Virus record (IMG/VR): IMGVR_UViG_3300028920_001939
Reading direction: 5' to 3' (one strand)
DNA from: a virus
Taxonomy: Duplodnaviria > Heunggongvirae > Uroviricota > Caudoviricetes
Length of the DNA: 36,983 nucleotides
Positions within the stretch are counted from its first letter, which is position 1; each line of letters starts with the position of its first letter. The notes beneath the pieces are model-generated. The model was not told the DNA's origin, made no database searches, and was given only the letters and a program-made list of their open reading frames with translations. Shown here piece by piece: positions 1,886 to 25,961 of this stretch. The translations under genes and the position numbers were made by a program.

Positions 1886-1980
1886 TAAAGAGGCGATAGA
1901 TAATGGTGAGTGATTTTTTTATCCCATCCATTCCATATCACTATGGAAATCTCCTAGCGCCATTATCCGCCAAATCTTTA
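1886..1980 (+). ncRNA. BHB-flanked structured RNA unit 1
   Basis: TAAAGA/TCTTTA outer helix; GGCG/CGCC 4-bp central helix; 3-nt bulges ATA (1896-1898) and AAA (1972-1974); 10-bp inner stem GATAATGGTG/CGCCATTATC. Confidence 0.8.
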
Positions 1981-2124
1981 AAAGGCGATAGAGTAACAGA
2001 ATATAATAGTATTCTGCGTGCATCAGGAAGTATGACCGTGCTATTACGGTGGTTTCATCTCGACTTTTTTTGCTTTCTCAGTAAAACTACAGATGAAACG
2101 AATCTCCGTTACTCCGCTAAATTT
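1981..2124 (+). ncRNA. BHB-flanked structured RNA unit 2 (multibranched interior)
   Basis: AAA/TTT outer helix; GGCG/CGCT central helix; bulges ATA (1988-1990) and AAA (2119-2121); inner GAGTAAC/GTTACTC; internal stems CAGAATA/TATTCTG, ACCGTG/TACGGT, GTTTCATCT/AGATGAAAC. Confidence 0.78.
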
Positions 2125-2127
2125 AAT

Positions 2128-2211
2128 AAGAGTGGTAAGATAGAGGGAATAAAGGTGTAATTATGTACCCACATCACATCCTCAATAAATTCTCTCTATC
2201 CCACAAATCTT
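2128..2211 (+). ncRNA. BHB-flanked structured RNA unit 3
   Basis: AAGA/TCTT outer helix; GTGG/CCAC central helix; bulges TAA (2136-2138) and AAA (2205-2207); 12-bp inner stem GATAGAGGGAAT/ATTCTCTCTATC. Confidence 0.8.
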
Positions 2212-2627: not shown

Positions 2628-4844
2628 ATGGAAGTACCACTAATAGCTAAACCAATTGTGAAATACAACAGAGAATACTTCGAGATATGGCATAACAAGA
2701 GTAAGAAGCATATTGAATCACCTATCAAACCCTATTTCTACAGTTACAAACCAGATTTGTTATCAGGCGATATCGAGATAAAACAGATACAAGCAAAGGC
2801 ACTATCAAACATGAAAGAGAGAACCTTTTACAAGTATGAATTTAATTTAAGAAGTGAATTAGTTAAATCAATAGAAGATGGTGTTACTTTTGAAGATAAT
2901 ATACCATTTGTTATCAGAAACAGAATTGATAATCCAGAGATATTCAGAAGATACAGAAATTCAGAAGAATTAACTTTCTTGTTTCTTGATATAGAACAGT
3001 ATTGTCCACCGGGTGAACCCTTTCCTTCTTATGAAGATAGATTGTTATCAATAGCGTGGTGCACCAACGATAGAATAATCAAATGTGCTTATCTTAAAGA
3101 AGATAATACAACTGATAAGAAACTTCTGAACTTATTCTTGAATAAATACAAAGAGATAGACCCAGATGTTATCGTGGTATTCAATAAGTCATATGATATA
3201 CCAACGATTATCAGAAGATGTGAAAGAAATGGATTAGATATCAAGAGATTATCAAGAGATTCAAGTAAACCTGAGCTTGACAAACACGGCAATATCAATA
3301 TTGGTGGCGTTATTGTATATGATGTTTATGATTCTGTTAGAGATGATCAATCACTTACAGGCAACGTGCCTAATCGTGGATTAAAAGCAGTATCAGATTA
3401 CTTTGGTTTTAATAGTGAAAGAGAACCTTTGACTAATAAAGAGATACAGATGTATATAGGTAAGAAAGAATTAACAGATTACAACAAAGATGATATAAGA
3501 AGAACACTACACTTGTTTGATATTTATTGGGATAACATAGAATTCAACGCAAACGATTTGGGTATACCACTTAACGAAGCATTAGATTTAAACATATCAA
3601 ATCTCGGTCTTATTGTTATAGGCGACGCTTATAGAGAATACAATATCATAGCAGATGGTAAGAATGAAGATAGATTTCCAGAGATATTCCAGAGAGGGAA
3701 AAGTCAATTTGAATCTAATTATGAAGGTGCTTTAGTAGATATAGCAAGAACTGGATTGTTTGAACCTGTGCTTAAAGCAGATTACGGTAGTATGTATCCT
3801 ACAATTATGGCTGAATTTAACTTATCACCAGATACGACAACACTAATAGGATTTGAAGAATATGGTAAGTTTGATATAATCGAAGAAGATAATTGGTTTA
3901 TTTACAGAATACCAGATAAAGAATTGAATAAAACTATGGTGATTCAAGTTTTGAAGAATGTAAAAGGGTTTTCTGCAGAGTTAGTAAAAAAGTTCTTAAA
4001 AGAACGTTCTGAATACAAAAAACTATGGAAAACAACGAACAAAAAGCATTACCGTGTAAAAAGTGATAACCGAAAGGTTAAAGCGAATGGTGGAGTTTAT
4101 GGCAATCAGGGTTTTGGAAAGCATCCATTTGGATTTGTTCCAATTGCAATCGCAACTACCGGGCTGGGACGTGAATGTGCAACACTATTGATTGATATTT
4201 TAGATAAATTATACCCAGATTCAGTTATAGAGTGGGACACAGATGGAGTTTACTTCTCGGCGAAAGATGTTGATAAAGATAAGATACAACAGTTGTTTAT
4301 CAATGAGTTAGAAAAGAGATTTAAGAAGAAGTTAGAATTAACAATAGATATAGATGATTACGATAAGGGTTACTTTTACAAAGCGAAAAACTATGTTTTA
4401 CAGAAAGGTGATAACATAATATATCACGGCGTGGCTATGAAAGGTAGAAACAAAGATTTATTAAAGAAAAATCTTATACGGGATTTAGCGGTTTCTAAAC
4501 TATCAGGTAGTCCAACGCAACCGATAATAGATAAATATATGGAATTAGATTTCCCACTTAAATTCTTTGCTATGAATGTAACTTTGAGGCGACATATCAA
4601 TCAGTATAAAAATCCTGAATCAACACTATCATCAAGATTAGCGTTACGTGCTGAGAAACTCTTGAAGAAGAAACCCGAAATAGGTTCGATATATCACTAT
4701 GTTAAAACAAATCAAGATTATGAATTACTTGAGTTGGCGAATGTGAAAGATATAGATAAAGAATACTATAGAAATGAGATTAAAACAATCGCTGATATAT
4801 TTCAAGTAGTATTGAAAGAACCGAAAATAGATAAATGGTTATAG
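2628..4844 (+). CDS. polB: Family B DNA polymerase with 3'-5' exonuclease domain
   Basis: ExoI LDIEQ, ExoII FNKSYD, ExoIII YNKDD; Pol A DYGSMYPTIM, Pol B KVKANGGVYG, Pol C DTDG; C-terminal IDKWL. Confidence 0.95.
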   Translation: MEVPLIAKPIVKYNREYFEIWHNKSKKHIESPIKPYFYSYKPDLLSGDIEIKQIQAKALSNMKERTFYKYEFNLRSELVKSIEDGVTFEDNIPFVIRNRIDNPEIFRRYRNSEELTFLFLDIEQYCPPGEPFPSYEDRLLSIAWCTNDRIIKCAYLKEDNTTDKKLLNLFLNKYKEIDPDVIVVFNKSYDIPTIIRRCERNGLDIKRLSRDSSKPELDKHGNINIGGVIVYDVYDSVRDDQSLTGNVPNRGLKAVSDYFGFNSEREPLTNKEIQMYIGKKELTDYNKDDIRRTLHLFDIYWDNIEFNANDLGIPLNEALDLNISNLGLIVIGDAYREYNIIADGKNEDRFPEIFQRGKSQFESNYEGALVDIARTGLFEPVLKADYGSMYPTIMAEFNLSPDTTTLIGFEEYGKFDIIEEDNWFIYRIPDKELNKTMVIQVLKNVKGFSAELVKKFLKERSEYKKLWKTTNKKHYRVKSDNRKVKANGGVYGNQGFGKHPFGFVPIAIATTGLGRECATLLIDILDKLYPDSVIEWDTDGVYFSAKDVDKDKIQQLFINELEKRFKKKLELTIDIDDYDKGYFYKAKNYVLQKGDNIIYHGVAMKGRNKDLLKKNLIRDLAVSKLSGSPTQPIIDKYMELDFPLKFFAMNVTLRRHINQYKNPESTLSSRLALRAEKLLKKKPEIGSIYHYVKTNQDYELLELANVKDIDKEYYRNEIKTIADIFQVVLKEPKIDKWL

Positions 4845-7705: not shown

Positions 7706-9052
7706 ATGCAGAGAAGAATTTTGTTATATGAAGGCGCCGTGTCAACGCAAAAATTAAACGCTTGTAGCTCTATGATCCTTTTTAAAAATTTTATCAATTA
7801 CAGTAACAAAAAACAAAATTGGCAGTATCACTTTTTTTATCCAAAAGACAGCAAACACCAACACACAATCCCTTTCCCAGAGTTAAACAAACCCAACATA
7901 CACAACTACTCCCACCAAGCACCCGGAAGTTGGTATCGTTGGCATTTCAACGCAAATGCTATAAAAGACCACGTTAATATGTTTGATAACGATTTCGATT
8001 GTATATTTACCAACGACGTAGAAACAGCTCCACATTTCAACGAATTATTCAACCGCCGGTGGCATTTCGACATACCTATACTCGCATACTGGGATTGGGT
8101 AGAATTACCCGAAAACGGCGGAAACTTAGATAATTTCGTAGTTCAACTCGCTTCTGTATTAACAACCACAAAAACCGGTGTTAATTCCCAATGGCAGAAA
8201 GATATCATAATGAGATACGCCAAAAGATACTTTTCTCCAGATACAATAGAAAAACTTGAAGAAAAGATACAACCACTCTATATTGGCATAGAAACAGAAG
8301 AAATCAACAAATATCAACCCTTTGGCAATCAAGATAACGATTTCAAGATAATATGGAACCACCGAATATCACCACAAACTGGTTTCAACAAATTCATATC
8401 AAAGATAGATAAATTGTATAAGAAATACAACAATATCAAAGTTATAGTAACAAACCCAATAAATAAAGGTACAGTAAAGAAAAAACCCTATATCATAGAA
8501 TTACGAGATTTAGACCGTGCTAAATACTTCTCTATCATAAAAGATTGCCAACTTGGCGTTGGTTACTTTCAAAACTACTCTGCCTGGTCAATGTCCATAA
8601 CAGATGTAATCGGTTGCAACATACCGGTACTAGTACCAAACGACTTCGCTTTTAGAGAGATGTTGGAATGGAATTATCCCTATCTCTTTACAAACGATTT
8701 TGAGAAGAAACTCATATCAATAATCGAAAATTATCCAAAAGAGTATTTTATGAAGAAATACATAGATAAACACGATTGGAATAACAGAATAGATGATTGG
8801 ATATCATTTGTAGAAACATCATTCAACACCGATGAAAAATCCACCTCAAACAACAAAAACGTATTAGATATAGTTAAGAAACACAAAACACTACCAAAAC
8901 GTGAACTAGTCCAAAACATAATGAAATTCGGCTATATCATAAAATGGACACCCTTCCGCAACTACCTGCTCAATCACGGCGTAAACGAAGAAATATCAAA
9001 AAACACAATATACACTACAAAAGATCCAAAACATATCAAGAGGTGGTTATAA
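7706..9052 (+). CDS. GT-B fold (GT4-like) glycosyltransferase with C-terminal helical extension and PIP-like tail
   Basis: IIWNHR at start of the C-terminal Rossmann domain; SAWSMSITDVIGCNIPVLVPNDFAFREML resembles the GT4 E-x7-E region; GAGGT SD. Confidence 0.75.
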   Translation: MQRRILLYEGAVSTQKLNACSSMILFKNFINYSNKKQNWQYHFFYPKDSKHQHTIPFPELNKPNIHNYSHQAPGSWYRWHFNANAIKDHVNMFDNDFDCIFTNDVETAPHFNELFNRRWHFDIPILAYWDWVELPENGGNLDNFVVQLASVLTTTKTGVNSQWQKDIIMRYAKRYFSPDTIEKLEEKIQPLYIGIETEEINKYQPFGNQDNDFKIIWNHRISPQTGFNKFISKIDKLYKKYNNIKVIVTNPINKGTVKKKPYIIELRDLDRAKYFSIIKDCQLGVGYFQNYSAWSMSITDVIGCNIPVLVPNDFAFREMLEWNYPYLFTNDFEKKLISIIENYPKEYFMKKYIDKHDWNNRIDDWISFVETSFNTDEKSTSNNKNVLDIVKKHKTLPKRELVQNIMKFGYIIKWTPFRNYLLNHGVNEEISKNTIYTTKDPKHIKRWL

Positions 9053-11457: not shown

Positions 11458-11783
11458 AAAAGATAATTATAGCAATATTGATACTATCAACCTTACTTTT
11501 AACAGGTTGCATAGAAGAAAGTTCATATCTAAATGAAGATTATGTTACAATTGTTGGTATATTATATGATTACAACGAAGAAGGTTATACTTTATATAGA
11601 ATGGATATAGATGAAAATATATCATATGCTTACAACGAAAAGTTAAGTTATGATATCGCCAAACAACTTAACAAAGGTGAATTGTATTATTTCGATTATC
11701 ATATATATGAAACTAAAGGCAACGTAGATCATATAATTTTATTATCAATACGAAACTCTGAAAATGTTACTGTGTGGAGTTAA
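11454..11783 (+). CDS. Putative lipoprotein
   Basis: MKK + hydrophobic + LTGC lipobox + IEE, same as 9390. Confidence 0.7.
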   Translation: MKKIIIAILILSTLLLTGCIEESSYLNEDYVTIVGILYDYNEEGYTLYRMDIDENISYAYNEKLSYDIAKQLNKGELYYFDYHIYETKGNVDHIILLSIRNSENVTVWS

Positions 11784-11785
11784 TA

Positions 11786-13624
11786 ATGAATGCTTTGATA
11801 TCAGTAGTAATACCCACGATACCAGAGAGAAAGAAATATTTAGATAACGCCATCAATTCAGTAAAAAATCAAACATACAAAAATATTGAATTGATAATCG
11901 TAACAGAAGGCAAATCAGCAGGAGCATCACGAAACATAGGTATCAAAAAAGCAAGAGGCAACTATATCGCGTTCCTCGACGACGATGATACTTGGCACCC
12001 AGAGAAATTAGAGAAGCAACTTAAACTTGCCGAAAAATATCCCAAATGCCCACTTATAACCTGTTACTCTCACGACAAACGATTCGGTCAAGATAAAATC
12101 AACAAACCACCCGAAGTTATCACTCAACGCAAAATACTAAACTCTTTTAACTATTCATCAACCTCAACATATCTAATAAACAGATACTATCTCAATCTTA
12201 TAGGTTTATTTGATGAATCATTACCTTCTGCTCAAGAATACGAACTTGCTATACGATTATCTGAAAAATACAATCCCAGATGTGTTCCCGAAGTACTCGT
12301 AACCCAAAATCCAACAGAAGGGCAAATATCAGAAAACTGGACAAAGAAAGCAAAAGGTATCAAACAAGTTTACAAAAAGCACAAAGAACTATTTTTGAAA
12401 GCTTCTAAGTTCAACAGAATAAAACTATACGGTTTATTTCTTGTTTTTTATGCAGGTCACATATTCGGCAACAAAATATACAAAATCATATCACCTATGA
12501 AACAACGATATGAAGATACAAAAGATATCATAATCTCTCGTGGCACCATCCAACACTTCGACAACCGCCTCGCACAAATATTCAAAGAATACGGCTACAA
12601 AACTTACAGCATATCAATATACAAACCCCAAGATGAATTCTTATCTAATTTTGAAAAATCCTACTATCTACTTGACAAATCTCTCAAATCAGAACAATCA
12701 TCAAAATCAGGCAAACTAAAAACAATCTTACGAATCGTAAACAGAATACCCAGATTATACAAAGCTAAAAAGCAACTAAAAGGTTCAACAGTAATAGGCG
12801 TATCTGAACCCAACACATTCATATCATATATCTTTCATCTATTCAGAAAATCAACCAAAATTTATTTCCCCTACGATATCACTTACTTCCGCTACGAAAA
12901 CTACAACAAAAACTCCTATCTCGAAAGATTCTGTGAAAAACGAAACTTCAACAAATGCAATGGCATAATCCACAAAGGTCCCGAAGATGAACTATCTTTA
13001 CTACCCTTCAACATAACAGATAAACCTTCAATACAATTCTTACCCTACTCTTGTATCAAATCACTACTGCCTATACAAGACAACTATTTAACAAAACTAA
13101 CCCTTGTTTACGTCGGCGGCGTTTACCCCAGTTACTCATTCCCAAACTTCCCCTCAACCGCTAAAATCTTCTCAAAGATAACTGAACTAAAAAATATCAA
13201 CCTACACATATATCCCTTGAATTATGATCAAATAAAAAACAGATTAGATTACTCAACACTCAACATTCATGAACCACTTTACAGCGACAATCTAATCAAA
13301 GAGATATCGAAATATGATTACGGCATATACATCTTCAATTTACACAAATCAAAACACAAGAAGCTCCTATCAACCGCTTTCGGCAACAAAGTATCAACAT
13401 ATCTCGAAGCAGGTCTCCCAGTGATAGTAAATAATGATTTGTCGTTTGTATCAAAGATAATACAAGATAACAAACTCGGCATTGTCATAAACGATATCAA
13501 TGATATAGAAAACATAAAAAAAGATTTTGATAGATATGAATTCGATAGAGCACGAAAGGAATTCACATTAGAAAAACATTTTCCAAGAATGATAGAATTT
13601 TTAAAAGAGGTTAAAAGCAAATGA
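11786..13624 (+). CDS. Two-domain glycosyltransferase: GT2 (GT-A) fused to a GT-B-like domain
   Basis: ISVVIPT, GASRNIGIKKARGNYIAFLDDDDTW (DxD), EYEL; C-terminal VYVGG and GNKVSTYLEAGLPVIV. Confidence 0.88.
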   Translation: MNALISVVIPTIPERKKYLDNAINSVKNQTYKNIELIIVTEGKSAGASRNIGIKKARGNYIAFLDDDDTWHPEKLEKQLKLAEKYPKCPLITCYSHDKRFGQDKINKPPEVITQRKILNSFNYSSTSTYLINRYYLNLIGLFDESLPSAQEYELAIRLSEKYNPRCVPEVLVTQNPTEGQISENWTKKAKGIKQVYKKHKELFLKASKFNRIKLYGLFLVFYAGHIFGNKIYKIISPMKQRYEDTKDIIISRGTIQHFDNRLAQIFKEYGYKTYSISIYKPQDEFLSNFEKSYYLLDKSLKSEQSSKSGKLKTILRIVNRIPRLYKAKKQLKGSTVIGVSEPNTFISYIFHLFRKSTKIYFPYDITYFRYENYNKNSYLERFCEKRNFNKCNGIIHKGPEDELSLLPFNITDKPSIQFLPYSCIKSLLPIQDNYLTKLTLVYVGGVYPSYSFPNFPSTAKIFSKITELKNINLHIYPLNYDQIKNRLDYSTLNIHEPLYSDNLIKEISKYDYGIYIFNLHKSKHKKLLSTAFGNKVSTYLEAGLPVIVNNDLSFVSKIIQDNKLGIVINDINDIENIKKDFDRYEFDRARKEFTLEKHFPRMIEFLKEVKSK

Positions 13625-14481
13625 GCAACACATACAAATGCCCAAAATGTGGGCAAGAAACTTTACAGGTTACAGAGAATCACAACAAAATAGGCGGCGT
13701 TTGTAGTAACTGTAATTATAAGTTTGTAAAAGATAAACAAAGCAAATCTTTAGTTATACTGAAACTGTTAAAAGAATATTCCTTTATCATAGCAATAGTA
13801 GCAATAGTAATCGTTGCAATATCATTTAGTGGTTTTAGTTCAGAAGATGCAAAACTCAATACTCGAATAAAAAATCTGAAAAGTGATATCGAAGAAGATA
13901 TAGGTGCAATTAATGTAAAGCTAAATGGATTAGATTCAGATATCAGCGCCCACGGAACTCTTATCAACGGTTTAACAAATAGATTAGAAAACGCTGAAAG
14001 CAATTTAACAGCACTAAAAAATCTACATTCTGATACAAGAAACATATTGTTACAATTAAATGATACAGTAAACAGCATATCTAAAAATGATATTATTGAT
14101 AACACTAAAGTATTTTTTAATATAACAAACTATGAAGATCAAAACATCTCTAACAGCAATTACTATGCCAACGCTGAGTTGAATATTATAAGTGAAGAAA
14201 CAATAAGTTTACTTGAATTTTATCTAACTTACCCCAACAGCAACATATCAATAGTAGATGAAAAAGTTATTAATGAAACATACTCGCAAACACTTAATTC
14301 TTACGATACTATAAATTTATTTAAGATAGGCGAATTTAAAAATTTCAATATCAATTTCAATATCACCTGGAATTCAACTCTGTATGATTCTACATTGATT
14401 TCTCACGCAGAAATTGTTCCAGTATTGAAACTTAACGCTACATATTTTAATGATATAAAATTTGAGGTGAAAACTGTATGA
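13621..14481 (+). CDS. Type II membrane protein: Zn ribbon, TM, coiled coil and sequon-rich ectodomain (putative surface/virion glycoprotein)
   Basis: CPKC/CSNC, TM FIIAIVAIVIVAISFSG, heptad-like stretch, 9 N-x-S/T sequons counted after the TM. Confidence 0.65.
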   Translation: MSNTYKCPKCGQETLQVTENHNKIGGVCSNCNYKFVKDKQSKSLVILKLLKEYSFIIAIVAIVIVAISFSGFSSEDAKLNTRIKNLKSDIEEDIGAINVKLNGLDSDISAHGTLINGLTNRLENAESNLTALKNLHSDTRNILLQLNDTVNSISKNDIIDNTKVFFNITNYEDQNISNSNYYANAELNIISEETISLLEFYLTYPNSNISIVDEKVINETYSQTLNSYDTINLFKIGEFKNFNINFNITWNSTLYDSTLISHAEIVPVLKLNATYFNDIKFEVKTV

Positions 14482-14924
14482 TACTTGAACCCGTAACAGA
14501 AGAAAATTTAGAGCTGATGTTAGCTTGGCGTTCTATACCTGAAGTTTACAAGTTTCAAGAAACACAAGATAAACCCTTCAAGTGGGAAGATCACTACAAT
14601 TGGTTTATTAACAGAAAGAACAGAGAAGATTATTTTATAATATATGAAGATAGAAGAATAGGTATAGTGAATGTAATTGCACTTAACGAAGATATACCTG
14701 AACTCGGCGTTTACATAGGCGAAACAACTCTTTGGGGAAATGGTTTGGGTTGTGAAGCAATAAAGATATTAATGCAAAGATTACAGAATAAAGGTTATGA
14801 AAAAGTATGTGCAACTACAAACAAAGAAAATGAAAGAAGTAATAAACTTTGGCAGAAGTTAGGATTTAAAAGAGAAAAAGAAGTCAAAGATGGTAAGGAG
14901 TGGCTATACATATGCAAGTTTTAG
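14478..14924 (+). CDS. GNAT N-acetyltransferase (PseH-like amino-sugar acetyltransferase)
   Basis: LAWRS, GVYIGE, WGNGLG acetyl-CoA loop, NERSNKLWQKLGF; context beside an aminotransferase. Confidence 0.8.
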   Translation: MILEPVTEENLELMLAWRSIPEVYKFQETQDKPFKWEDHYNWFINRKNREDYFIIYEDRRIGIVNVIALNEDIPELGVYIGETTLWGNGLGCEAIKILMQRLQNKGYEKVCATTNKENERSNKLWQKLGFKREKEVKDGKEWLYICKF

Positions 14925-15889
14925 TTACTGGCGGAAGTGGTTACGTTGGCTCTGTTTTAGTTAGAAAACTTATCAAAGAAGGTCATAACGTATCTGTTTT
15001 AGATAAGATGATGAGTGGCAACGAACCTTTGAGAGATATCAGAGATTCCATTGAGATATTTGATGGAGATATAAGAAACCTGGAACTTTTAAAAACTATT
15101 CTAACAAATACTGACGCTGTTATTCACCTTGCTTGCATATCTAACGACCCCGCTTCAGAATTGAATCACGAACTCACATTGGATATTAACTACAACGCAA
15201 CATACGGGTTACTCAACTTATCAAAAAAGTTAGGTGTTAAAAGATTCATATACGCTTCAACAAGTAGTGTTTACGGTATCAAAGAAGAAGAAAAAGTAAC
15301 TGAAGATTTACCTCTTGAACCTCTAACAATCTATTCTAAAACGAAAGCGTGGGCTGAAAGTGATATCTTAAAAAGCAACGCACCTGATTTTACCACAACA
15401 TCAATACGTTCCGCTACAGTATGTGGTTATTCGCCTTGTATGAGTTTTGATACTGTTGTTAATCTACTAACAGCATACGCAATCAATAACAATAAGATAA
15501 CAGTTTTCGGTGGTTCACAAAAAAGACCAAACATACACATCGACGACATAACAGATACTTATACTATGATGTTAACCGCTGATGAAGATAAGATAAAAGG
15601 TCAAGCATTCAATGTAGGATTTGAAAATCATACAGTAATGCAACTTGCTGAAATGATACGAAACATCATATCAAAGAATGTAGAAATCGAAGTTAAACCA
15701 ACAGATGATTTACGTTCATATCATATCTGTTCAGATAAAATCATCAACACACTCGGTTTCAAACCCAAGAAATCTATATCAGATGCGATACACGATATCA
15801 AAGAAGCATTTAAATCTGGTAAGATACCTGATTGGAAATCATATAAATATTATAATGTTAAAAAGATAAAGGAGTCAAATATCTTATGA
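14912..15889 (+). CDS. NAD-dependent NDP-sugar epimerase/dehydratase (extended SDR)
   Basis: VLVTGGSGYVGS, ASTSSVYG, YSKTK (YxxxK). Confidence 0.92.
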   Translation: MQVLVTGGSGYVGSVLVRKLIKEGHNVSVLDKMMSGNEPLRDIRDSIEIFDGDIRNLELLKTILTNTDAVIHLACISNDPASELNHELTLDINYNATYGLLNLSKKLGVKRFIYASTSSVYGIKEEEKVTEDLPLEPLTIYSKTKAWAESDILKSNAPDFTTTSIRSATVCGYSPCMSFDTVVNLLTAYAINNNKITVFGGSQKRPNIHIDDITDTYTMMLTADEDKIKGQAFNVGFENHTVMQLAEMIRNIISKNVEIEVKPTDDLRSYHICSDKIINTLGFKPKKSISDAIHDIKEAFKSGKIPDWKSYKYYNVKKIKESNIL

Positions 15890-16992
15890 GAAAGAATATA
15901 AATTATATCGGACTGAAAGAACAACACTCCACATTAAGAAATCAAATAATAAGAAGTGTAAATTCAGTATTAAATGATTCAATGTTTATACTCAGCAAGC
16001 AATTAGAAGAATTTGAAAAAACCTTTGCTGAATATGTAGGAGCAAAATACTGCGTGGGCGTAAATTCAGGTACCGATTCTTTATTCTTATCAATGAAAGC
16101 TTTAGGTATAAATCAGTATTCTTCAGTAATAACTGCACCAAACTCATTCTTAGCAACCGCTTCTTCTATAGTAGCAACAGGCGCACGACCTATCTTTGTA
16201 GATGTATCTGAAGATATGAATATCAATCCCGACTTGATAGAAGATGCAATTGAGGTTGATACAATCGCTACCATTCCAGTTCACTTAACAGGTCGCCCCG
16301 CAAAGATGAATAAGATTATGAGAATCGCTGAAGATAAAGGACTATATGTTATAGAAGATTGTGCTCAAGCAATAGGCACCAAATTCAAAGATAAGCACGT
16401 TGGCACATTCGGCGATATTGGCTGCTTCAGTTTCCACCCACTCAAGACACTAAACGCTTGTGGCGATGGTGGTGCTATCGTAACAAACAGTAAACGAATA
16501 TATGATAAGCTCTTACAGTTGAGAAACATTGGCTTGAAAGATAGAGACCACGCAGATTTGTGGGGTTACAACAGTAGATTAGATACACTACAAGCATCAA
16601 TACTTCTTACAAAGATGAAATACGTTAATTACTGGGTTGAGAAAAGAAGAAACAACGCTAAGATATATTCACATAATCTTAAAAATATTGTCAACACGCC
16701 TAAAGAAACAAAAGATGAATATTCTACATATCACACATATATAATAAAAACTGAAAACAGAAACCATTTACAATCTTATCTTAAAGATAACAGAATAAGA
16801 ACTGCAATTCATTATCCCATTCCAATACACTTACAGAAATGTGCACAATCACTCGGCTACAAGAAAGGGGATTTTCCCGAAACTGAAAAGCAAGCAGATA
16901 CAATCTTATCACTACCCATTTACCCCGAATTGAAAATAGAAGAAATAATGTATGTTATAGAGATGATAAAGAAATGGAAAGATGTGTTTTAA
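15886..16992 (+). CDS. DegT/DnrJ/EryC1/StrS PLP-dependent sugar aminotransferase
   Basis: VNSGTDSL, IEDCAQAIG, FSFHPLKTLNACGDGG, NSRLDTLQA, LSLPIYPEL. Confidence 0.95.
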   Translation: MRKNINYIGLKEQHSTLRNQIIRSVNSVLNDSMFILSKQLEEFEKTFAEYVGAKYCVGVNSGTDSLFLSMKALGINQYSSVITAPNSFLATASSIVATGARPIFVDVSEDMNINPDLIEDAIEVDTIATIPVHLTGRPAKMNKIMRIAEDKGLYVIEDCAQAIGTKFKDKHVGTFGDIGCFSFHPLKTLNACGDGGAIVTNSKRIYDKLLQLRNIGLKDRDHADLWGYNSRLDTLQASILLTKMKYVNYWVEKRRNNAKIYSHNLKNIVNTPKETKDEYSTYHTYIIKTENRNHLQSYLKDNRIRTAIHYPIPIHLQKCAQSLGYKKGDFPETEKQADTILSLPIYPELKIEEIMYVIEMIKKWKDVF

Positions 16993-17975
16993 CCGGCGGC
17001 GCAGGTTTCATAGGTTCACACCTCGCTGATTTGCTAATCAAGAAAGGACACGAAGTAATAGTTATCGATAATATGGTAACTGGTCGACCTGAAAATATAA
17101 AACAACACATCAATAACAACAATTTTATTTTACACCCACTTGACATAACTGATTTCAGAAAAAGATTTCAGATGGTAAAAGAAATCTTCTCTGGAGCTGA
17201 TTGGGTATTTCATCTCGCCGCTCTTGCTGATATTGTGCCTTCTATAGAAAATCCTGTAAAATATCATAAAGCAAATGTTGATGGAACAATTAATATGCTT
17301 GATTGCGCTAAAGAAACACATGTAAAAAAATTCATCTATATGGCTTCATCATCTTGTTACGGCATTCCTGATATCTATCCTACACCTGAAACAGCACCCA
17401 TACAACCTATGTATCCATACGCTTTAACCAAATACCTCGGCGAATACATATCATTACACTATCATAAAGTTTACAATCTACCTGTAAATTCTATACGTTG
17501 TTTCAACGTCTACGGTCCCAGAGCAAGAACCTCTGGCGCTTACGGCGCCGTATTCGGTGTGTTCCTCGCACAGAAACTACACAACAAACCCTTTACAGTT
17601 ATAGGCGATGGTAATCAAACCCGTGATTTCACTTATGTAACAGATGTAACTGAAGCACTTTATGAAACTGCAAAATCAAAGTTTGCAGGAGAAATCATAA
17701 ACATAGGTAGTGGCGAAACACACTCTGTAAATGAAATAGTAGAACTACTCGGCGGTGATAAGATACACATTCCAAAACGACCAGGCGAACCAGATATAAC
17801 ACACGCCGACATCACCAAAGCAAAACGATTCTTAAACTACAAACCTAAAGTATCATTCGAAGAAGGTATAAAACAACTCTTGAAGAATACCAATCACTGG
17901 AAGAATGCACCTATTTGGACACCTAAAACTATTGCGAAAGCAACAAGGTCGTGGTATAAATATATAAAAGATTAA
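16974..17975 (+). CDS. NAD-dependent NDP-sugar epimerase/dehydratase (extended SDR)
   Basis: TGGAGFIGSH, HLAALA, YALTK, RCFNVYGPR, RDFTYV. Confidence 0.93.
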   Translation: MERCVLTGGAGFIGSHLADLLIKKGHEVIVIDNMVTGRPENIKQHINNNNFILHPLDITDFRKRFQMVKEIFSGADWVFHLAALADIVPSIENPVKYHKANVDGTINMLDCAKETHVKKFIYMASSSCYGIPDIYPTPETAPIQPMYPYALTKYLGEYISLHYHKVYNLPVNSIRCFNVYGPRARTSGAYGAVFGVFLAQKLHNKPFTVIGDGNQTRDFTYVTDVTEALYETAKSKFAGEIINIGSGETHSVNEIVELLGGDKIHIPKRPGEPDITHADITKAKRFLNYKPKVSFEEGIKQLLKNTNHWKNAPIWTPKTIAKATRSWYKYIKD

Positions 17976-18511
17976 CACAAGAAGAACTAAAACATTTCAA
18001 ATCACCATTCATAGTAAACGAAGAAAGATTAATAGAAGCAGTAGGTATGTTGAAATACAACAACTACAAAGTTGGTTTATGTTGTGGCACCTTTGATCTA
18101 TTACACCCTGGACATATAATACATCTTAATTCTGCAAACAAACTATGTGATAGACTTATTGTTGGCGTTGCTTCTGATATGCAAGTAAGAAGAAGAAAAG
18201 GTTACGGTCGGCCCATCTTTCAACAAGAGTTACGAATGTATCAAATAGCAAATCTGAATATATATCCATTAGTAACATTAAACGAATATCAAACCGCTGT
18301 GTATCTTATCAATAAGATAGAACCAGACATATACATAAAAGGTATAGAATACAAAACAAAAACAACACACGGCATTACTTCTGAAAAAGAAGCAATCAAA
18401 TCTGTCGGCGGCGAAATAAAATACACTAACGATCCAGTATTATCAAGTAGTAAAGTTTTAAACTGTATCTACAAGGATATGATAAACAACAAAGCATTAA
18501 GTGGGATATGA
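17960..18511 (+). CDS. HxGH-type nucleotidyltransferase (RfaE/HldE domain II or cytidylyltransferase-like); start uncertain (ATA 17960 or ATG 18047)
   Basis: GTFDLLHPGH, LIVGVASD, PDIYIKG, SSS tail; frame open upstream of the track ATG. Confidence 0.85.
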   Translation: MYKRLTQEELKHFKSPFIVNEERLIEAVGMLKYNNYKVGLCCGTFDLLHPGHIIHLNSANKLCDRLIVGVASDMQVRRRKGYGRPIFQQELRMYQIANLNIYPLVTLNEYQTAVYLINKIEPDIYIKGIEYKTKTTHGITSEKEAIKSVGGEIKYTNDPVLSSSKVLNCIYKDMINNKALSGI

Positions 18512-18517
18512 TATAAT

Positions 18518-19057
18518 ATGGATTTAATAATACTCGATAGAGATGGGACACTAATCCCAGATGAATTCTACAAAAACTGCAACAGAGAAAACTGGCACCA
18601 CATTATGCCAATCAATCACAAACTCATAAAACTAATCAAGAGAAATTTCAAAGATTACATATGCTTCATAGTAACAAATCAAGCACCCGTTGCTTTAGGT
18701 CTATACACCGAATCAAGAGTAAAAGAGATAAACAACTTTCTAATTACCTATCTCAAAAACGAATGCATAAATGTAATCGACCATAACTACTGCCCACACG
18801 TTGATATCAATTGGGCAACAGATACAGGCACTCCCGTAAACGTAAACTATGTAAGAGATTTCACAAACAGAAAGCCCTCACCAACAATGGTTTATCAATT
18901 ACTCAAGAAACACAACTACACAATAAAAGCATTTGATAAGATATACGTCTTTGGCGACCGCCACGAAGATAAAGAGTTAGCAATCAATCTAAGCGCAAAA
19001 TACATTGCGATGGATTTCGACACACCATATTCAGAATTAGAGAATAAGATAAAATGA
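18518..19057 (+). CDS. HAD-IIIA phosphatase (GmhB/HisB-like)
   Basis: LDRDGTL, VTNQ, CPH, RKPSPTM, GDRHED motifs. Confidence 0.85.
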   Translation: MDLIILDRDGTLIPDEFYKNCNRENWHHIMPINHKLIKLIKRNFKDYICFIVTNQAPVALGLYTESRVKEINNFLITYLKNECINVIDHNYCPHVDINWATDTGTPVNVNYVRDFTNRKPSPTMVYQLLKKHNYTIKAFDKIYVFGDRHEDKELAINLSAKYIAMDFDTPYSELENKIK

Positions 19058-20046
19058 AAATAGAACCCATACTTAAAACATTGAAATCATTACGAAATCT
19101 AAAAGTGTTAGTGATAGGCGAAACTATCATTGATGAATACATTTTCTGTAAAGCGATGGGACGACCTGAAAAAGCCGCAACAGTATCAACAAAATTCTTA
19201 TCGAAAGAACAATACGTTGGCGGTTGCTTAGCAGTAGCAAATCACGTTTCTGGTTTTGTAAAGCAAGTTGATGTTATAACAGTAGCAGGTAAAAATCCCG
19301 AATGGAAACTTTTTATAAACAGTAAAATAAATCAAAACGTAAAAACATTATTCTTTGATAACAACAAATCACCAACAATCATAAAAACACGATTTCTTGA
19401 AGATTGGAATAAAGCAAAACTTTTTGAGGTATCAATAATCGACGATAAACCTCTACCACCCGAAGTTGAGAAAACTATAGTAACTTTTCTCCAATACGAA
19501 CTACAAGATTACGATTTAGTAATCATCACCGACTTCGGACACGGACTTTTCACACAAAATATTCGTGATACAATATCAAAATACGCAAAATACATATGCG
19601 TAAACGCACAAACCAATTCTGCCAATCACGGATTCAACTTAATCACGAAATATACCGGTGTTCAATTTATTTCCCTTGACGAACAAGAAATTCGTTTGCC
19701 CTATTGTAGCAAGTATGGAGATCTACTTGAACTGATACATACACTATCTGTTGATACTACCTGTAATAAAATAAATGTAACGCTTGGCTCAAATGGAATA
19801 ATTTATTATCAAGATAAAAAAACGTATCAGGTGCCGGTATTTAACTCGAAACCAGTAGATACTGTGGGTGCTGGAGATGCAGTTTTATCAATTTCATCAT
19901 TATTGGCATACAAAAATACAAACCCAGAAATAATACCATTCGTCGGCAACGCTGTTGGCTACCTCGCAACACAATATTTAGGTAATAAAGAATCAATAAA
20001 CTATAAATTATTATCAAAAACATTAAAGGAGGTATGTAATGACTAA
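19054..20046 (+). CDS. PfkB-family sugar kinase (RfaE/HldE domain I-like)
   Basis: VLVIGETIIDEY, DFGHG, VTLGSNG, VDTVGAGD. Confidence 0.9.
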   Translation: MKIEPILKTLKSLRNLKVLVIGETIIDEYIFCKAMGRPEKAATVSTKFLSKEQYVGGCLAVANHVSGFVKQVDVITVAGKNPEWKLFINSKINQNVKTLFFDNNKSPTIIKTRFLEDWNKAKLFEVSIIDDKPLPPEVEKTIVTFLQYELQDYDLVIITDFGHGLFTQNIRDTISKYAKYICVNAQTNSANHGFNLITKYTGVQFISLDEQEIRLPYCSKYGDLLELIHTLSVDTTCNKINVTLGSNGIIYYQDKKTYQVPVFNSKPVDTVGAGDAVLSISSLLAYKNTNPEIIPFVGNAVGYLATQYLGNKESINYKLLSKTLKEVCND

Positions 20047-20605
20047 TAATTTCATTAAAAATTATAAAATAAACCTGATAAGCACTTTAAACAAAATCAA
20101 TGATAATGCCATATTACAATTATCAAATATGTTAATTAACGCAAGAAACAAATACAAAACAATCTTCATTATGGGCAACGGCGGTTCAGCCGCCACCGCT
20201 TCACACTTCGTTGGTGATTTATCAAAAGGCGCACTTGTTGAAAACAAGCCACGATTCAAAGCTATCGGCTTAACTGATAACATACCCAACATTACACAAT
20301 GGGGTAACGATATCAATTACGAATCAATATTCGTTGAGCAACTAAAAAACTTACTTGAAATAGATGATATCGTAATCGGTATCAGCGGTAGTGGCGAATC
20401 AAAGAATGTGATAAACGCAATCAAATACGCAAACTCAATAGGCGCTTACACAATAAGCATAACAGGTTATTCTGAAGATAACACACTAAACAAAATATCA
20501 AAATATCATATACACATACCCTGCGATACAATGCAAGTGGTAGAAGATTTGCATATGATAATAGAACATATGATAACATTAATGATACACGAGGAGAAGA
20601 AATGA
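20039..20605 (+). CDS. SIS-domain phosphosugar isomerase (GmhA-like)
   Basis: GNGGSAATASHF, GISGSGESKNV, QVVEDLH. Confidence 0.9.
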   Translation: MTNNFIKNYKINLISTLNKINDNAILQLSNMLINARNKYKTIFIMGNGGSAATASHFVGDLSKGALVENKPRFKAIGLTDNIPNITQWGNDINYESIFVEQLKNLLEIDDIVIGISGSGESKNVINAIKYANSIGAYTISITGYSEDNTLNKISKYHIHIPCDTMQVVEDLHMIIEHMITLMIHEEKK

Positions 20606-21366
20606 TAAGGTATAAACTTTATTTGCATTACTTGAGATTAAAGCATATAAGAGGTAATAAAAATAAGGTTAACTTTCTTAATAGAAATTGGGATTACGCA
20701 ATCGTTCTTGATGCTTGCCGTTATGATACATTCAAAGAGTTATATGAAAGTGATAGATACAAAGATATAGGAATATATGGCAAACTATCAAAGATGATAT
20801 CTCCCGCTTCACATACGATTGATTGGATAAAATATTGTATGAAAGAAGAACATAAAGATATGATTCTATTAACTACAAGTCCTCATTTCGATCCTTCGAG
20901 ATTGAAGAAATATAAAGTAAAGAATTGTTTTTATAAGATAAAACACCTTTGGAAAAATTACTATAATGAAAAACTTGGTGTTGTACACCCTGAAAGTATG
21001 ATTGATGCATTCAATATCACTAAAATGAGATATCCTGATAAAAGAATCATTTTATGGTTTATGCAACCTCATAGACCTTACATTATCAATAAAGAAAAAT
21101 CCTGGACAGATTATCATAAACTTAAAGATACAAACGCAGAAGAAATAAATTATGAAGATATAGAAAAAAGTTACGAAGCGTATGTTGATAATTTATATCT
21201 TGTTATGAAAGTTATCAAAAATATAATTCCTAAGATGAAAGGAAAAGTAATCATTACATCTGACCACGGTAACCTTTTTGGAAAATATAATGTTTTCTTA
21301 CACCCAAGAATGTTACGAGTTCCTGAATTAGTAGAAGTTCCTTATCTGGAGGTTGATAACAATTAA
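20602..21366 (+). CDS. Alkaline phosphatase/sulfatase-superfamily core protein
   Basis: IVLDACRYD, FMQPHRPY, ITSDHG, VPYL motifs. Confidence 0.8.
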   Translation: MIRYKLYLHYLRLKHIRGNKNKVNFLNRNWDYAIVLDACRYDTFKELYESDRYKDIGIYGKLSKMISPASHTIDWIKYCMKEEHKDMILLTTSPHFDPSRLKKYKVKNCFYKIKHLWKNYYNEKLGVVHPESMIDAFNITKMRYPDKRIILWFMQPHRPYIINKEKSWTDYHKLKDTNAEEINYEDIEKSYEAYVDNLYLVMKVIKNIIPKMKGKVIITSDHGNLFGKYNVFLHPRMLRVPELVEVPYLEVDNN

Positions 21367-22003
21367 ATCATTTCTATTCAAATTGTTTTATCCATTATAT
21401 CTACAATATTGTAAAATTAAATACATTCAAGGAAATGTAGAGTTAAATAGAAAAACACATTTGTTACTCTATAAAAACTCAAGAATTATATCAAATGGCA
21501 ATCTTAAAATAGGTATTGATTACTCGAAATACGGCGGTTCAGGAATTGACCCACGAAAAGATAACTGTAGAATACATCTTAAAAATTCAACATTATACAC
21601 AATAGGCAACGTAAGTATAAAACCATCTGTTAAGATAATAGGTTACAATTGTGATATTGAAATAGATGATGGAACACAAATAAACTACGGCACCGAAATA
21701 ATCTGTAGTAAAAGAATAACAATAGGTAAGAATTGCCGTATTGCACCTAATGTAGTTATTCGTGATTCAGATGCTCACAAACATTCTTATGGAAAAGAAA
21801 AACCCAAAACATCAATCAAAACTATTCATATCAAAGATAACGTGTGGCTCGGTCAGCAATCAATGATACTCAAAGGTGTAACAATCGGAAAAGGTTCTGT
21901 AGTTGCACCTAAATCAGTTGTAACTAAAGATGTTGAACCGCACACACTCGTCGGCGGGATACCAGCTAAAAAATTAAGAGATAATATAAAGTGGGAGATA
22001 TGA
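21353..22003 (+). CDS. Left-handed beta-helix acyltransferase
   Basis: Hexapeptide repeats; ITIGKNCRIA, DSDAH, VWLG...ILKGVTIG, VGGIPAK. Confidence 0.9.
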   Translation: MITIKSFLFKLFYPLYLQYCKIKYIQGNVELNRKTHLLLYKNSRIISNGNLKIGIDYSKYGGSGIDPRKDNCRIHLKNSTLYTIGNVSIKPSVKIIGYNCDIEIDDGTQINYGTEIICSKRITIGKNCRIAPNVVIRDSDAHKHSYGKEKPKTSIKTIHIKDNVWLGQQSMILKGVTIGKGSVVAPKSVVTKDVEPHTLVGGIPAKKLRDNIKWEI

Positions 22004-22593
22004 TATACAAATATAAAAAAAGTATAATGAAACACCGTTGGAGATACGGACGTATATCTGATAAGTTTTTACAAATTATATTTGGTTATAAGTATCATAT
22101 GCGACCTTTTAATTTACAACTTTTGTATCTAAAAAATCTTGTTGGTGTTGAAATAGGCACCCGTGAAGGTTTCAATGCTCGTGTAATGTTAGATACTTTA
22201 GATATCAAAAAACTCTATCTTATTGATCCTTATTTTTACTATGATGACTTAAAAGAAAAATATGATAATCTTGAGAATAGTATAAACGTAGCAAAAAGAA
22301 GATTGTATAAGTATAGAGATAAAATCATATTTGTAAAGAAAAAATCAGAGGACGCAAAAAATGATATACCCGACAATCTCGATTTCGTTTACATAGATGG
22401 CAACCATTCATATCAATATGTTAAGAAAGATATCGAACTATACTATCCAAAAGTAAAAGAAGGCGGTTTACTTGCTGGTCATGATTTTCAAGCATCAAGG
22501 ATAAATGATGTGTGTCTTGCTGTAACTGAATTCTCCCAAAAACATAACATAAAACTAAACGGATTAGATAGGGATTGGTGGTTCATAAAATGA
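22000..22593 (+). CDS. Class I SAM-dependent methyltransferase (Methyltransf_24-like)
   Basis: GVEIGTREG, LIDPY, DFVYIDGNH, GGLLAGHD. Confidence 0.88.
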   Translation: MIYKYKKSIMKHRWRYGRISDKFLQIIFGYKYHMRPFNLQLLYLKNLVGVEIGTREGFNARVMLDTLDIKKLYLIDPYFYYDDLKEKYDNLENSINVAKRRLYKYRDKIIFVKKKSEDAKNDIPDNLDFVYIDGNHSYQYVKKDIELYYPKVKEGGLLAGHDFQASRINDVCLAVTEFSQKHNIKLNGLDRDWWFIK

Positions 22594-22985
22594 AAGTAAC
22601 AAACAACTTCACAAAAAGAAAACGATTCTTTTACTGGCTATTCAGAAGATTCTATTTCTACTTGACAGGTTTAAATCCCAACATCTACATACACAACTTT
22701 CACCACACACATATAGGCAACAACACACGAATCGCTTCAGGCGTCGCAATCATCTCATCTAATCACAACAATTACAACGTATCAATACAAGATGAACACA
22801 AAGATATCAATATAGGTAAAAACTGTATGCTCGGATGCAACGCTGTAATCTTACCCGGCGTAACACTTGGCAATAACACAATCGTCGGTGCTAACTCTGT
22901 TGTAACTAAATCATTTCCAAAAGGTTACTGTGTAATAGTAGGTAACCCCGCAAAGAAAGTTAAAGATTTAAAGGAGAAAAAATGA
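22590..22985 (+). CDS. Left-handed beta-helix acyltransferase
   Basis: INIGKNCMLGCNAVILPGVTLG, VGNPAK. Confidence 0.88.
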   Translation: MKVTNNFTKRKRFFYWLFRRFYFYLTGLNPNIYIHNFHHTHIGNNTRIASGVAIISSNHNNYNVSIQDEHKDINIGKNCMLGCNAVILPGVTLGNNTIVGANSVVTKSFPKGYCVIVGNPAKKVKDLKEKK

Positions 22986-23710
22986 ATTTAAAACATATCA
23001 AAGATAGTATTGATAGAAACACAATAAGAATTCTTTATAAAAAACAAATGAATAAATCTTCAGAAAGAATAAGAGAGTTACGAATAAAACATTTAGGTGA
23101 AAGAGTATTCATATTAGGCAACGGTCCCTCTTTGAACGAAACTGATTTCTCACTTATCAAAAACGAAACATTCTTTGCCGCAAATGCTTTCTATAAAGGT
23201 ATGAAAAATTTTAATATAAAACCCCAATACTGGGCAATCGGTGATGGCGGAATATTTGATAACCATTACAAGAAAGTTATGAAACTCAACACAAATCTAT
23301 TCTTAACACATCAAGCACTATATAATTATTTAACTTGTCCTGTATATAAAAAGAAAGAACCTTACCTTATAGAAACAATAGGTAAGATAAAAAATAAAAC
23401 AAATTTCAGTTTCGACATATCAAAAGGCATTTATATCGGTGGCGGTATAATTCCCATTATGATACAAATATCATTTTATCTTGGATTTAAAGAAATGTAT
23501 CTTTTAGGTTGTGATTGTGGGAGCAAAGGAAAACCCTCCCATCACTTTTATAAAAGCAACAGAAAACCCCGAGATGATTATTCTGAAATATTCGAAATAT
23601 ATGAAATTTGTAAATACGCACTTAACTTTTGCGGTAGAAGAATATACAACGCAACAGTTGGTGGCAATCTTGAAGTATTCCCAAGAGTGAAGTTGGAGGA
23701 TATTGTATGA
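22982..23710 (+). CDS. DUF115/Maf/GT42-like protein, putative CMP-sugar-acid transferase
   Basis: FILGNGPSL, FAAN, QISFYLGFKEMYLLGCD, HHFY, YNAT; resembles the GNGPS...LGYKEIYLxGxD layout of CstII-type sialyltransferases. Confidence 0.7.
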   Translation: MNLKHIKDSIDRNTIRILYKKQMNKSSERIRELRIKHLGERVFILGNGPSLNETDFSLIKNETFFAANAFYKGMKNFNIKPQYWAIGDGGIFDNHYKKVMKLNTNLFLTHQALYNYLTCPVYKKKEPYLIETIGKIKNKTNFSFDISKGIYIGGGIIPIMIQISFYLGFKEMYLLGCDCGSKGKPSHHFYKSNRKPRDDYSEIFEIYEICKYALNFCGRRIYNATVGGNLEVFPRVKLEDIV

Positions 23711-25522: not shown

Positions 25523-25534
25523 AGGAGGTAAAAA

Positions 25535-25951: not shown

Positions 25952-25961
25952 GAGTGAAAAT

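Follow-up and report, generated by a model that had tools for sequence, protein, structure and literature searches.

A tandem array of three bulge-helix-bulge units in a probably archaeal mobile element: a candidate cassette of small RNAs matured by host splicing enzymes

The stretch of DNA analysed here (IMG/VR record IMGVR_UViG_3300028920_001939; 36,983 nt, hereafter referred to as the window) carries three abutting units at 1886-2211 on the + strand, upstream of the gene for a family B DNA polymerase (PolB), each of which has the form of a bulge-helix-bulge (BHB) motif with a helix on either side (hBHBh'), i.e. the kind of structure that is cut by the archaeal splicing endonuclease EndA. 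It seems likely that the array is an element-encoded cassette of three RNAs, each closed by its own hBHBh' motif and matured by the EndA and RtcB of the host, likely as circles. The carrier is a low-GC mobile element of at least 101 kb that is probably archaeal.

Results and discussion

Structure of the array

Inspection of the sequence and folding with RNAfold lead to one shared architecture, in which every unit consists of an outer helix, a 4-bp central helix and a long inner stem, and each strand has a 3-nt bulge 3' of the 4-bp helix. Pre-tRNAs with an intron at position 37/38 are laid out likewise: the 5' strand runs from the outer stem through a 4-bp helix and a bulge into the intron, and the 3' strand from the intron through the 4-bp helix and a bulge into the outer stem. 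Unconstrained folding of 1880-2220 gave exactly three BHB motifs, both as the minimum free energy (MFE) and as the centroid structure (dG -90.4 kcal/mol, z -4.2, with 0 of 100 shuffles as stable), while units 1, 2 and 3 folded singly returned the same motifs (z -3.9, -3.6 and -3.2, respectively). A first-pass annotation, made from the sequence by hand pairing, had placed three canonical motifs at these coordinates and had named a different favoured fold as the result that would speak against them; the fold that is in fact favoured reproduces all three. Its further claim that the geometry is canonical on the + strand alone holds as well, since the - strand yields only the mirror form, for the array as for the single units. 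A definition of the BHB motif is also given in bioRxiv 10.64898/2026.10.13.758758. The parts of the array are as follows.

1886..1980, + strand: BHB unit 1, from sequence and fold; stem dG -22.3 kcal/mol
1886-1891 / 1975-1980, + strand: outer helix of unit 1, TAAAGA/TCTTTA, 6 bp
1892-1895 / 1968-1971, + strand: central helix of unit 1, GGCG/CGCC
1896-1898 and 1972-1974, + strand: bulges of unit 1, ATA and AAA
1899-1908 / 1958-1967, + strand: inner stem of unit 1, 10 bp
1914-1920, + strand: T7 tract in the loop of unit 1, which also holds the C/U-rich stretch ATCCCATCCATTCC...AATCTCCT
1981..2124, + strand: BHB unit 2, from RNAfold, covariation and a 10-member family
1981-1983 / 2122-2124, + strand: outer helix of unit 2, AAA/TTT, 3 bp
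1984-1987 / 2115-2118, + strand: central helix of unit 2, GGCG/CGCT
1988-1990 and 2119-2121, + strand: bulges of unit 2, ATA and AAA
1991-1997 / 2108-2114, + strand: inner stem (P1) of unit 2, GAGTAAC/GTTACTC, 7 bp
2128..2211, + strand: BHB unit 3, from sequence and fold; dG -20.9 kcal/mol
2128-2131 / 2208-2211, + strand: outer helix of unit 3, AAGA/TCTT, 4 bp
2132-2135 / 2201-2204, + strand: central helix of unit 3, GTGG/CCAC
2136-2138 and 2205-2207, + strand: bulges of unit 3, TAA and AAA
2139-2150 / 2189-2200, + strand: inner stem of unit 3, 12 bp; its loop holds CATCACATCCTCA

Conservation and covariation in relatives

Relatives were found via homologues of PolB, from which syntenic contigs (labelled L001, L003 and so on) were reached in ENA, JGI and Logan assemblies. 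Units of the array are kept upstream of PolB or other early genes in relatives at 55-87% PolB identity. Among the closest of these (82-87% identity), the same location holds units 1 and 2 in L001 and all three units in L005, while in L003 units 1 and 2 are separated by a small insert; in the distant relatives (55-60% identity), unit 2 lies directly upstream of PolB or another early gene, accompanied in L016 and L017 by a second short unit. The orthologues of unit 1 (L001 3991/4058, L003 4461/4522 and L005 4486/4552) differ in the sequence of their inner stems, and unit 3 has an orthologue in L005 (4735/4800) and is missing from L001 and L003. The insert of L003 (4530-4640; also present in L004, 3850-3939) contains a lysine-rich open reading frame (ORF) of 29 codons that runs across the predicted 5' splice site of unit 2, with its last codons and stop beyond it; splicing would thus alter its C-terminus.

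When six copies of unit 2 were aligned with MAFFT and folded with RNAalifold, the BHB was recovered, and 17 of its 33 consensus pairs show compensatory changes. Covariance models for unit 2 (R1, built from this alignment, and a second model, R2) detect 10 distinct loci with E values of 1e-13 to 1e-43, and a search of 833 kb of other loci with R2 returned only near-identical duplicate contigs of members and two partial matches limited to the BHB. In the 10-member alignment, which was fitted to the structure of the model so that its pair counts lean towards that model, 95.5% of the cells are paired and both sides have changed in 22 of 34 pairs; none of 500 shuffles equalled the observed pairing or covariation, a shift of the partner columns by 1-3 positions lowers the pairing to 38-53%, and an alignment made with MAFFT only agrees on the covariation. 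Paired cells amount to 97.5% in the central helix (with compensatory changes in three of its four pairs), 88% in the outer helix and 98.6% in the inner stem. Every one of the ten members has bulges of exactly 3 nt and a central helix of exactly 4 bp, even though the helix itself reads GGCG/CGCT, GGTG/CACC, AACG/CGTT or GATG/CATC, i.e. the stem sequences vary and the pairing is retained. Compensatory change, which had first been noticed between the units of the window, is thus also found between relatives, and both the covariance-model search of homologous contigs proposed at that time and the conservation of the BHB geometry turned out in favour of the motif. The pairing cells of the family include 19 G.U against 3 A.C, from which it follows that the structure belongs to the RNA of the coding strand.

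The same comparison bears on an ORF of 85 codons (1903..2160, + strand) that overlaps the array and that had been singled out beforehand as the possible real product. Its ATG has GAGG 9 nt upstream, and in L005 an ORF of 121 residues is called over the array. The homologous frame, however, ends after 6 codons in L005 and 18 codons in L003, the nucleotide blocks conserved among four relatives occur in all three frames, and the gene caller placed nothing over the array in the record of the window itself or in L001. The ORF is therefore judged spurious, and it is hardly credible that the array encodes its 85-residue protein.

Predicted products and their maturation

In archaea, BHBs are cut by EndA, after which RtcB or another ligase joins the ends and the excised pieces circularise (PMC12558985 section 4.2), as in the archaeal case of the tRNA-Trp intron (PMC12558985). 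The cut positions predicted below apply the established EndA rule (both 3-nt bulges are cut behind their second nucleotide) to the array, and give the same three sizes and coordinates as had been put forward in the first-pass annotation.

1898..1973, + strand: predicted excised RNA 1, 76 nt; back-splice junction CGCCAA|AGATAAT (1973 to 1898)
1990..2120, + strand: predicted excised RNA 2, 131 nt; back-splice junction CGCTAA|AGAGTAAC (2120 to 1990)
2138..2206, + strand: predicted excised RNA 3, 69 nt; back-splice junction CCACAA|AGATAGAG (2206 to 2138)
1897 to 1974, + strand: predicted exon junction of unit 1, GGCGAT|ATCTTT
1989 to 2121, + strand: predicted exon junction of unit 2, GGCGAT|ATTTAA
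2137 to 2207, + strand: predicted exon junction of unit 3, GTGGTA|ATCTTC

The cassette would be transcribed on the + strand within the leader or intergenic RNA of a replication-gene operon, where host EndA would cut following the second nucleotide of every bulge, to leave 5'-OH and 2',3'-cyclic phosphate ends, and an RtcB-type ligase would join these ends. The RNAs released, most likely as circles, would measure 76, 131 and 69 nt, and the flanking mRNA would be resealed with a short hairpin scar. The middle RNA would be the functional cargo, and the flanking units would use the same BHB-plus-stem chassis to display loops with U-tracts or C/U-rich, anti-Shine-Dalgarno-like sequence. We infer transcription, cleavage, ligation, circularity and function from established archaeal RNA biology, and they do not all carry the same weight: it is probable that the units are EndA substrates, and somewhat less so, though still more likely than not, that the excised RNAs accumulate as circles, while confidence in any particular function for the released RNAs is low.

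That one of the excised pieces measures 76 nt, and that archaea do have BHB-flanked permuted tRNAs and intron-borne C/D-box small RNAs (sRNAs), would fit a known RNA in disguise, be it a permuted or split tRNA, a C/D-box or H/ACA sRNA, a ribozyme or a riboswitch. This appears highly improbable. ARAGORN found no tRNA, transfer-messenger RNA (tmRNA) or permuted tRNA in the window, in the spliced exons or in 17 excised pieces that were doubled (i.e. circularised), so that the ligated exons indeed form no tRNA, as had been supposed, and neither do the permuted excised pieces. With Rfam 15 at gathering thresholds, there were no matches to the linear sequence of the whole window, and at E <= 10 the region 1800-2300 gave only noise (E > 2); the sole match to a small nucleolar RNA (snoRNA) lies upstream of the array (E 2.7, 19 bits versus a threshold of 70 bits). 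The C box (RUGAUGA) and the D box (CUGA) are both absent from 1886-2211, which bears out the earlier impression, and the C box is also absent from the arrays of five relatives.

The unit-2 RNA and the loops of the short units

Unit 2, with its 10 members, represents a conserved and structured RNA 127-149 nt long. Its P1 stem (7 bp) covaries at every position and is followed by a conserved AGAAUA, a variable hairpin and a conserved GCAUCA. Next come P2 (3 bp, 2026-2028/2105-2107, the third pair of which covaries from A-U to G-C) and a short purine linker, then the P3 hairpin ACCG/CGGU (2035-2038/2047-2050) and a single G, and then P4 (9 bp, 2052-2060/2091-2099, with 6 covarying pairs), which has a U7 tract (2065-2071) and a C/U-rich stretch at its tip; GAAUC then leads back into P2 and P1. 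Modelled in this way, the middle RNA would be built on two stacked three-way junctions. The core is conserved in sequence and structure, and not in reading frame. The proposal that the excised RNAs, rather than the ligated exons, are the products accordingly gains support for unit 2, the interior of which is such an RNA. An exact scan of 185,579 species genomes with an 18-mer of unit 2 gave only 6 chance matches in bacteria, and scans of IMG/VR with a PolB peptide, an 18-mer, the unit-2 motif and a Shine-Dalgarno-like BHB pattern gave chance matches and no family member.

Units 1 and 3, together with about ten further short units in relatives, have predicted products of 61-76 nt each, with a stem of 9-13 bp and a loop of about 30-50 nt. 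These loops are poor in G (6.6% against a background of 18.8%) and rich in C (27% against 13%), often have a U-tract, and contain TCCT in 10 of 13 cases and CTCCT in 7 of 13, CUCCU being the core of the anti-Shine-Dalgarno sequence. The pyrimidine-rich, anti-Shine-Dalgarno-like character that the first-pass annotation had ascribed to the loops is thereby confirmed. On its suggestion that they could be guides, no specific antisense target of the three loops was found among the 46 translation-initiation regions of the window. Pairing with the purine-rich initiation regions is better than pairing with windows taken at random, yet it is just as good when the loops are shuffled, i.e. it is an effect of composition. 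One short unit of a relative (L015 4257-4321) has the BHB-plus-P1 chassis of unit 2 with a C/U-rich loop in place of the core, which suggests a common chassis with exchangeable cargo.

Enrichment and placement of BHB modules

Because plain pair-count scans for BHBs are noisy in AT-rich DNA when G.U pairs are permitted, an energy-scored scan for the 3-4-3 geometry (helices scored with ViennaRNA, with strand, shuffle and geometry controls) was used on 344 kb, comprising the window and 29 loci of close relatives. Stable modules (dG <= -14 kcal/mol) numbered 23 on the + strand (which are not independent, but form about three orthologous sets plus about ten singletons), against 2 on the - strand and 0 in block-shuffled sequence. 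With bulges of 2 or 4 nt, or a central helix of 2, 3, 5 or 6 bp, the + strand gave 0-9 and the - strand 1-5. Look-alikes that match the pattern only were also retrieved from IMG/VR, and these lack a genuine inner stem, as 13 of the 14 have 0-1 bp there and the other has 4 bp. Taken together with the conservation and covariation, the strand- and geometry-specific enrichment and the stemless look-alikes place the array beyond chance, and it is one instance of a wider habit in this element family, not a private oddity of the window.

Many of the high-confidence modules begin 0-25 nt past a stop codon and end 1-14 nt ahead of the next start or Shine-Dalgarno region, i.e. they occupy spacers of polycistronic messages, so that their removal would leave a compact, intact message. 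Modules also occur at a distance from the recombinase and PolB genes (L017 8438, L022 8026 and L041 10877). Two candidates with BHB geometry lie within long ORFs and have interiors that are a multiple of three: window 35672-35981, with an interior of 303 nt, which is AU/GU-rich and probably due to chance, and L032 2341-2509, with an interior of 162 nt and an inner stem of 14 bp.

This distribution bears on the possibility that the array consists of inverted repeats with a function in the DNA itself, either as recombination sites of the neighbouring serine recombinase or as an origin of replication beside PolB, in keeping with its position between the resolvase gene (1167-1811) and the PolB gene (2628-4844). 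Such a role is very improbable: the excess of G.U over A.C means that the pairing functions on one strand only, neither cruciforms nor protein sites demand the enrichment of 3-nt bulges and 4-bp helices, modules are found remote from both genes, and it is the pairing rather than the sequence of the stems that is conserved.

Introns as an alternative to RNA products

A different explanation, which overlaps with the cassette in that the same EndA cleavage takes place and differs in what is selected, is that the units are BHB introns of untranslated or intergenic mRNA, for which the act of splicing and not the excised RNA matters. They could then be selfish passengers that splice out cleanly (an archaeal counterpart, as it were, of phage group I introns) or cis-regulators by which a Shine-Dalgarno sequence is kept masked or out of place as long as splicing has not occurred. 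We consider this somewhat unlikely as the whole explanation, although a cis-acting or selfish role is a live, partial rival for the short units. The presence of short units varies among close relatives (unit 3 being found in the window and L005, and not in L001 and L003), their loops are poorly conserved while the BHB and stem are conserved, and the modules fit tightly into the space from a stop codon to the Shine-Dalgarno that follows. Many BHBs have, moreover, a 5' strand that is Shine-Dalgarno-like itself (AGGA-GGTG-A; AGGAGGTGA), and the L015 unit, with its unit-2 chassis and no core, points the same way.

The L015 unit (at 4250-4335) exactly fills the space from a stop codon to the ATG with which a rhodanese-like gene starts, with AAGGAGG in its 5' exon and the ATG abutting its 3' exon, so that splicing at 4257-4321 would leave a spacing of 10 nt between the two; it is possibly a splicing-dependent translation switch. 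As a general route to the assembly of Shine-Dalgarno and start, splicing was rejected, as it works for this module and not for most, in which the downstream Shine-Dalgarno lies outside the BHB and is independent of splicing.

Selection on splicing alone fails to account for the core of unit 2, the interior of which is conserved and covarying over 10 loci, well beyond what splicing needs. The bias of the short loops described above (low G, and CUCCU in 7 of 13) likewise suggests selection on the excised part, and we know of no mobility mechanism for BHB introns. Maturation of a three-RNA cassette remains the preferred explanation.

Element, neighbourhood and host

The window has a GC content of 31%, has every convincing gene on the + strand, and is part of an ENA metagenome contig with a length of 101,246 bp. 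The array lies in a gap of 414 nt between the serine recombinase and two small membrane-protein ORFs that precede PolB.

1167-1811, + strand: serine recombinase (Pfam Resolvase, E 2e-29)
1860-1867 and 1877-1884, + strand: TATA-box-like A/T octamers TTTAAAAA and TTTATAAA, read from the sequence upstream of unit 1
2628-4844, + strand: family B DNA polymerase, PolB

The octamers are a possible archaeal promoter, and use of the first one would start a transcript at about the outer helix; in L001 the array abuts the stop codon of the resolvase gene, and co-transcription with the upstream gene is therefore equally possible. Just past the resolvase stop of the window, a non-coding stretch (1815-1855, AAAAATGYTATCAAGRAAAATT...) is conserved in a relative that has no BHB units (L014 2645-2690), and may be a recombinase site or a promoter or terminator element.

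The nearest PDB relatives of PolB are archaeal family B polymerases of Thermococcales (E 2e-30), and its identity to the best GenBank virus polymerase is 24%; GenBank phages and archaeal viruses contain no DNA match. A syntenic contig of 11 kb has been binned in a Heimdallarchaeaceae genome. It seems, then, that the host is archaeal and possibly Asgard, for which the BHBs themselves are the strongest support, next to the affinity of PolB and this one bin. A DegT-like aminotransferase is uninformative on the host, as its nearest named relatives are assorted bacteria. The PolB of the window has no intein or LAGLIDADG domain; several of its homologues, namely P0038, P0044, P0046, P0051, P0073 and P0099, are 1080-1115 residues long and contain such domains (PF14528, PF14890).

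About 30 ORFs of the window were compared with Pfam (the first 10 also with PHROGs), which revealed genes for replication, methylation (a methylase) and sugar biosynthesis, no capsid, portal or terminase in the 37 of at least 101 kb that were covered, and no homologue of EndA or RtcB. Of the earlier description of the carrier as viral, the mobile element of at least 101 kb stands and the virus is unproven, no capsid gene having been seen in the 37-kb window. A long block of sugar-modification genes (11774-26666) encodes a family 2 glycosyltransferase, GNAT acetyltransferases, epimerases/dehydratases, a DegT aminotransferase, cytidylyltransferases, NeuB, SIS and PfkB proteins and methyltransferases, and looks like a nonulosonic acid or amino-sugar pathway. 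A protein of 448 residues (7706-9052) with no match in Pfam or PHROGs has a counterpart (446-460 residues) in the corresponding place in every close relative. Two relatives (L016 510-584 and L023 3361-3434) contain a tRNA-Gly(UCC)-like gene according to ARAGORN, with a perfect T-arm (CCTGG-TTCAAAT-CCAGG) and an unusual anticodon loop and D-loop. The sequence that precedes it, AAAGAGGCGAAC, is similar to the 5' strand of a BHB unit, and in L016 the tRNA-like gene extends over the position at which a DruA-family ORF is called to start.

The presence of several strong canonical substrates per element would also suit a decoy or sink that titrates EndA or RtcB in a host with splicing-dependent tRNAs. 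Most tRNA genes can be interrupted by introns in some Asgard lineages, whereas Heimdallarchaeia, which provide the only hint of a host, are reported to be intron-poor (bioRxiv 10.64898/2026.10.13.758758). A decoy, furthermore, has no need of the conserved core of unit 2, and the Shine-Dalgarno-led genes of the element need the tRNAs of the host themselves. All in all, titration is very unlikely to be what the array is for.

Points that weigh against the cassette

Several observations tell against the maturation of three RNAs from the array. Unit 2 of the window, the proposed source of the main cargo, is the weakest BHB, with an outer helix of only three A-U pairs; it falls short of dG <= -10 kcal/mol in the energy-scored scan and rests on its orthologues, in which the outer helices are 4-6 bp. 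The internal T7 tracts (1914-1920 in unit 1 and 2065-2071 in unit 2, with T5-T8 equivalents in most units of relatives) could be archaeal terminators, at which the precursor would stop short of the 3' half of the BHB; alternatively, they could be Lsm/SmAP sites or sites bound by a termination factor. A few of the 23 modules lie inside long ORFs and may be due to chance, and the contig from the Heimdallarchaeaceae bin, for all that it hints at the host, has no strong BHB module. To these come the lean of the pair counts towards the model, the non-independence of the modules and the missing antisense targets, as given above.

Relation to known systems

Archaeal pre-tRNA introns and the processing stems of 16S and 23S rRNA have the same hBHBh' 3-4-3 geometry, flanking helices and predicted cut sites, and the rRNA stems likewise have a BHB that closes a long stem, the enclosed RNA being released in one piece and circularised. 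The array, by contrast, belongs to a mobile element and encloses cargo other than tRNA or rRNA; its three units follow one another head to tail within an mRNA leader or intergenic spacer, and their processing is predicted. The intron of euryarchaeal tRNA-Trp, also a BHB-excised circle, is a functional C/D-box guide RNA, whereas here there are no C/D boxes and no tRNA host gene, and the cargo is a new structured RNA together with C/U-rich loops. BHB introns are also said to occur in protein-coding mRNA, namely in cbf5 of Crenarchaeota; these are likewise EndA substrates within mRNA, and in both cases exon ligation must yield a working message, but they interrupt an ORF and restore its frame, while the present units form arrays in the untranslated spacers of a mobile element.

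Phage group I introns resemble the units in being intervening RNAs of a mobile genome that are removed at the RNA level, which preserves gene expression, and vary in presence among close relatives; the splicing considered here would, however, follow an altogether different chemistry, depend on protein supplied by the host, involve no homing endonuclease and be intergenic, not intragenic. The omega-RNAs of archaeal IS200/IS605 elements are non-coding RNAs of an archaeal mobile element as well, and circular, but they have no BHB motif and an EndA-independent biogenesis has been proposed for them (PMC12558985), whereas the BHB is the defining feature of the array.

In tRNA intronic circular RNAs (tricRNAs) and engineered BHB scaffolds for circular RNA (circRNA), a BHB-closed stem reportedly turns any cargo into a circle through a splicing endonuclease and RtcB; the former are metazoan by-products and the latter laboratory constructs, while the array would be a natural, evolved use of the same principle. 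Full-text searches on BHBs in connection with viruses, archaeal viruses, Asgard archaea and mobile elements yielded no such arrays. The motif and the enzymes are well known; what appears to be new is the carrier, the arrangement as an intergenic array and the RNA family of unit 2.

Conclusions

BHB splicing is regarded as housekeeping, confined to tRNA, rRNA and a few mRNAs. If the array is what it seems to be, it would be the first natural case found of an archaeal mobile element or virus that uses the EndA and RtcB of its host for the maturation and circularisation of its own RNA, by the same design that synthetic biologists now use to express circRNA. It provides a new conserved structured RNA family (unit 2) and exact junction sequences that can be tested. 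More tentatively, and with rather low probability, BHB cassettes might be a general system of chassis and exchangeable cargo in a family of Asgard-associated elements, which would exploit the tRNA-splicing machinery of the host to obtain stable circular RNAs. The loops of these circles, with their U-tracts and CUCCU, and the conserved scaffold of unit 2 would act in trans on translation or on an RNA-binding factor of the host, and the modules, for which any site with flanks that can pair would do, would also be a reservoir or vector for the repeated gain of BHB introns in Asgard genes. The array may thus connect mobile elements with intron-like BHB modules, in a lineage for which the route of intron arrival is open (bioRxiv 10.64898/2026.10.13.758758), and if the circles were to bind Shine-Dalgarno-like sequences or a host factor, they would represent a new kind of host-takeover RNA.

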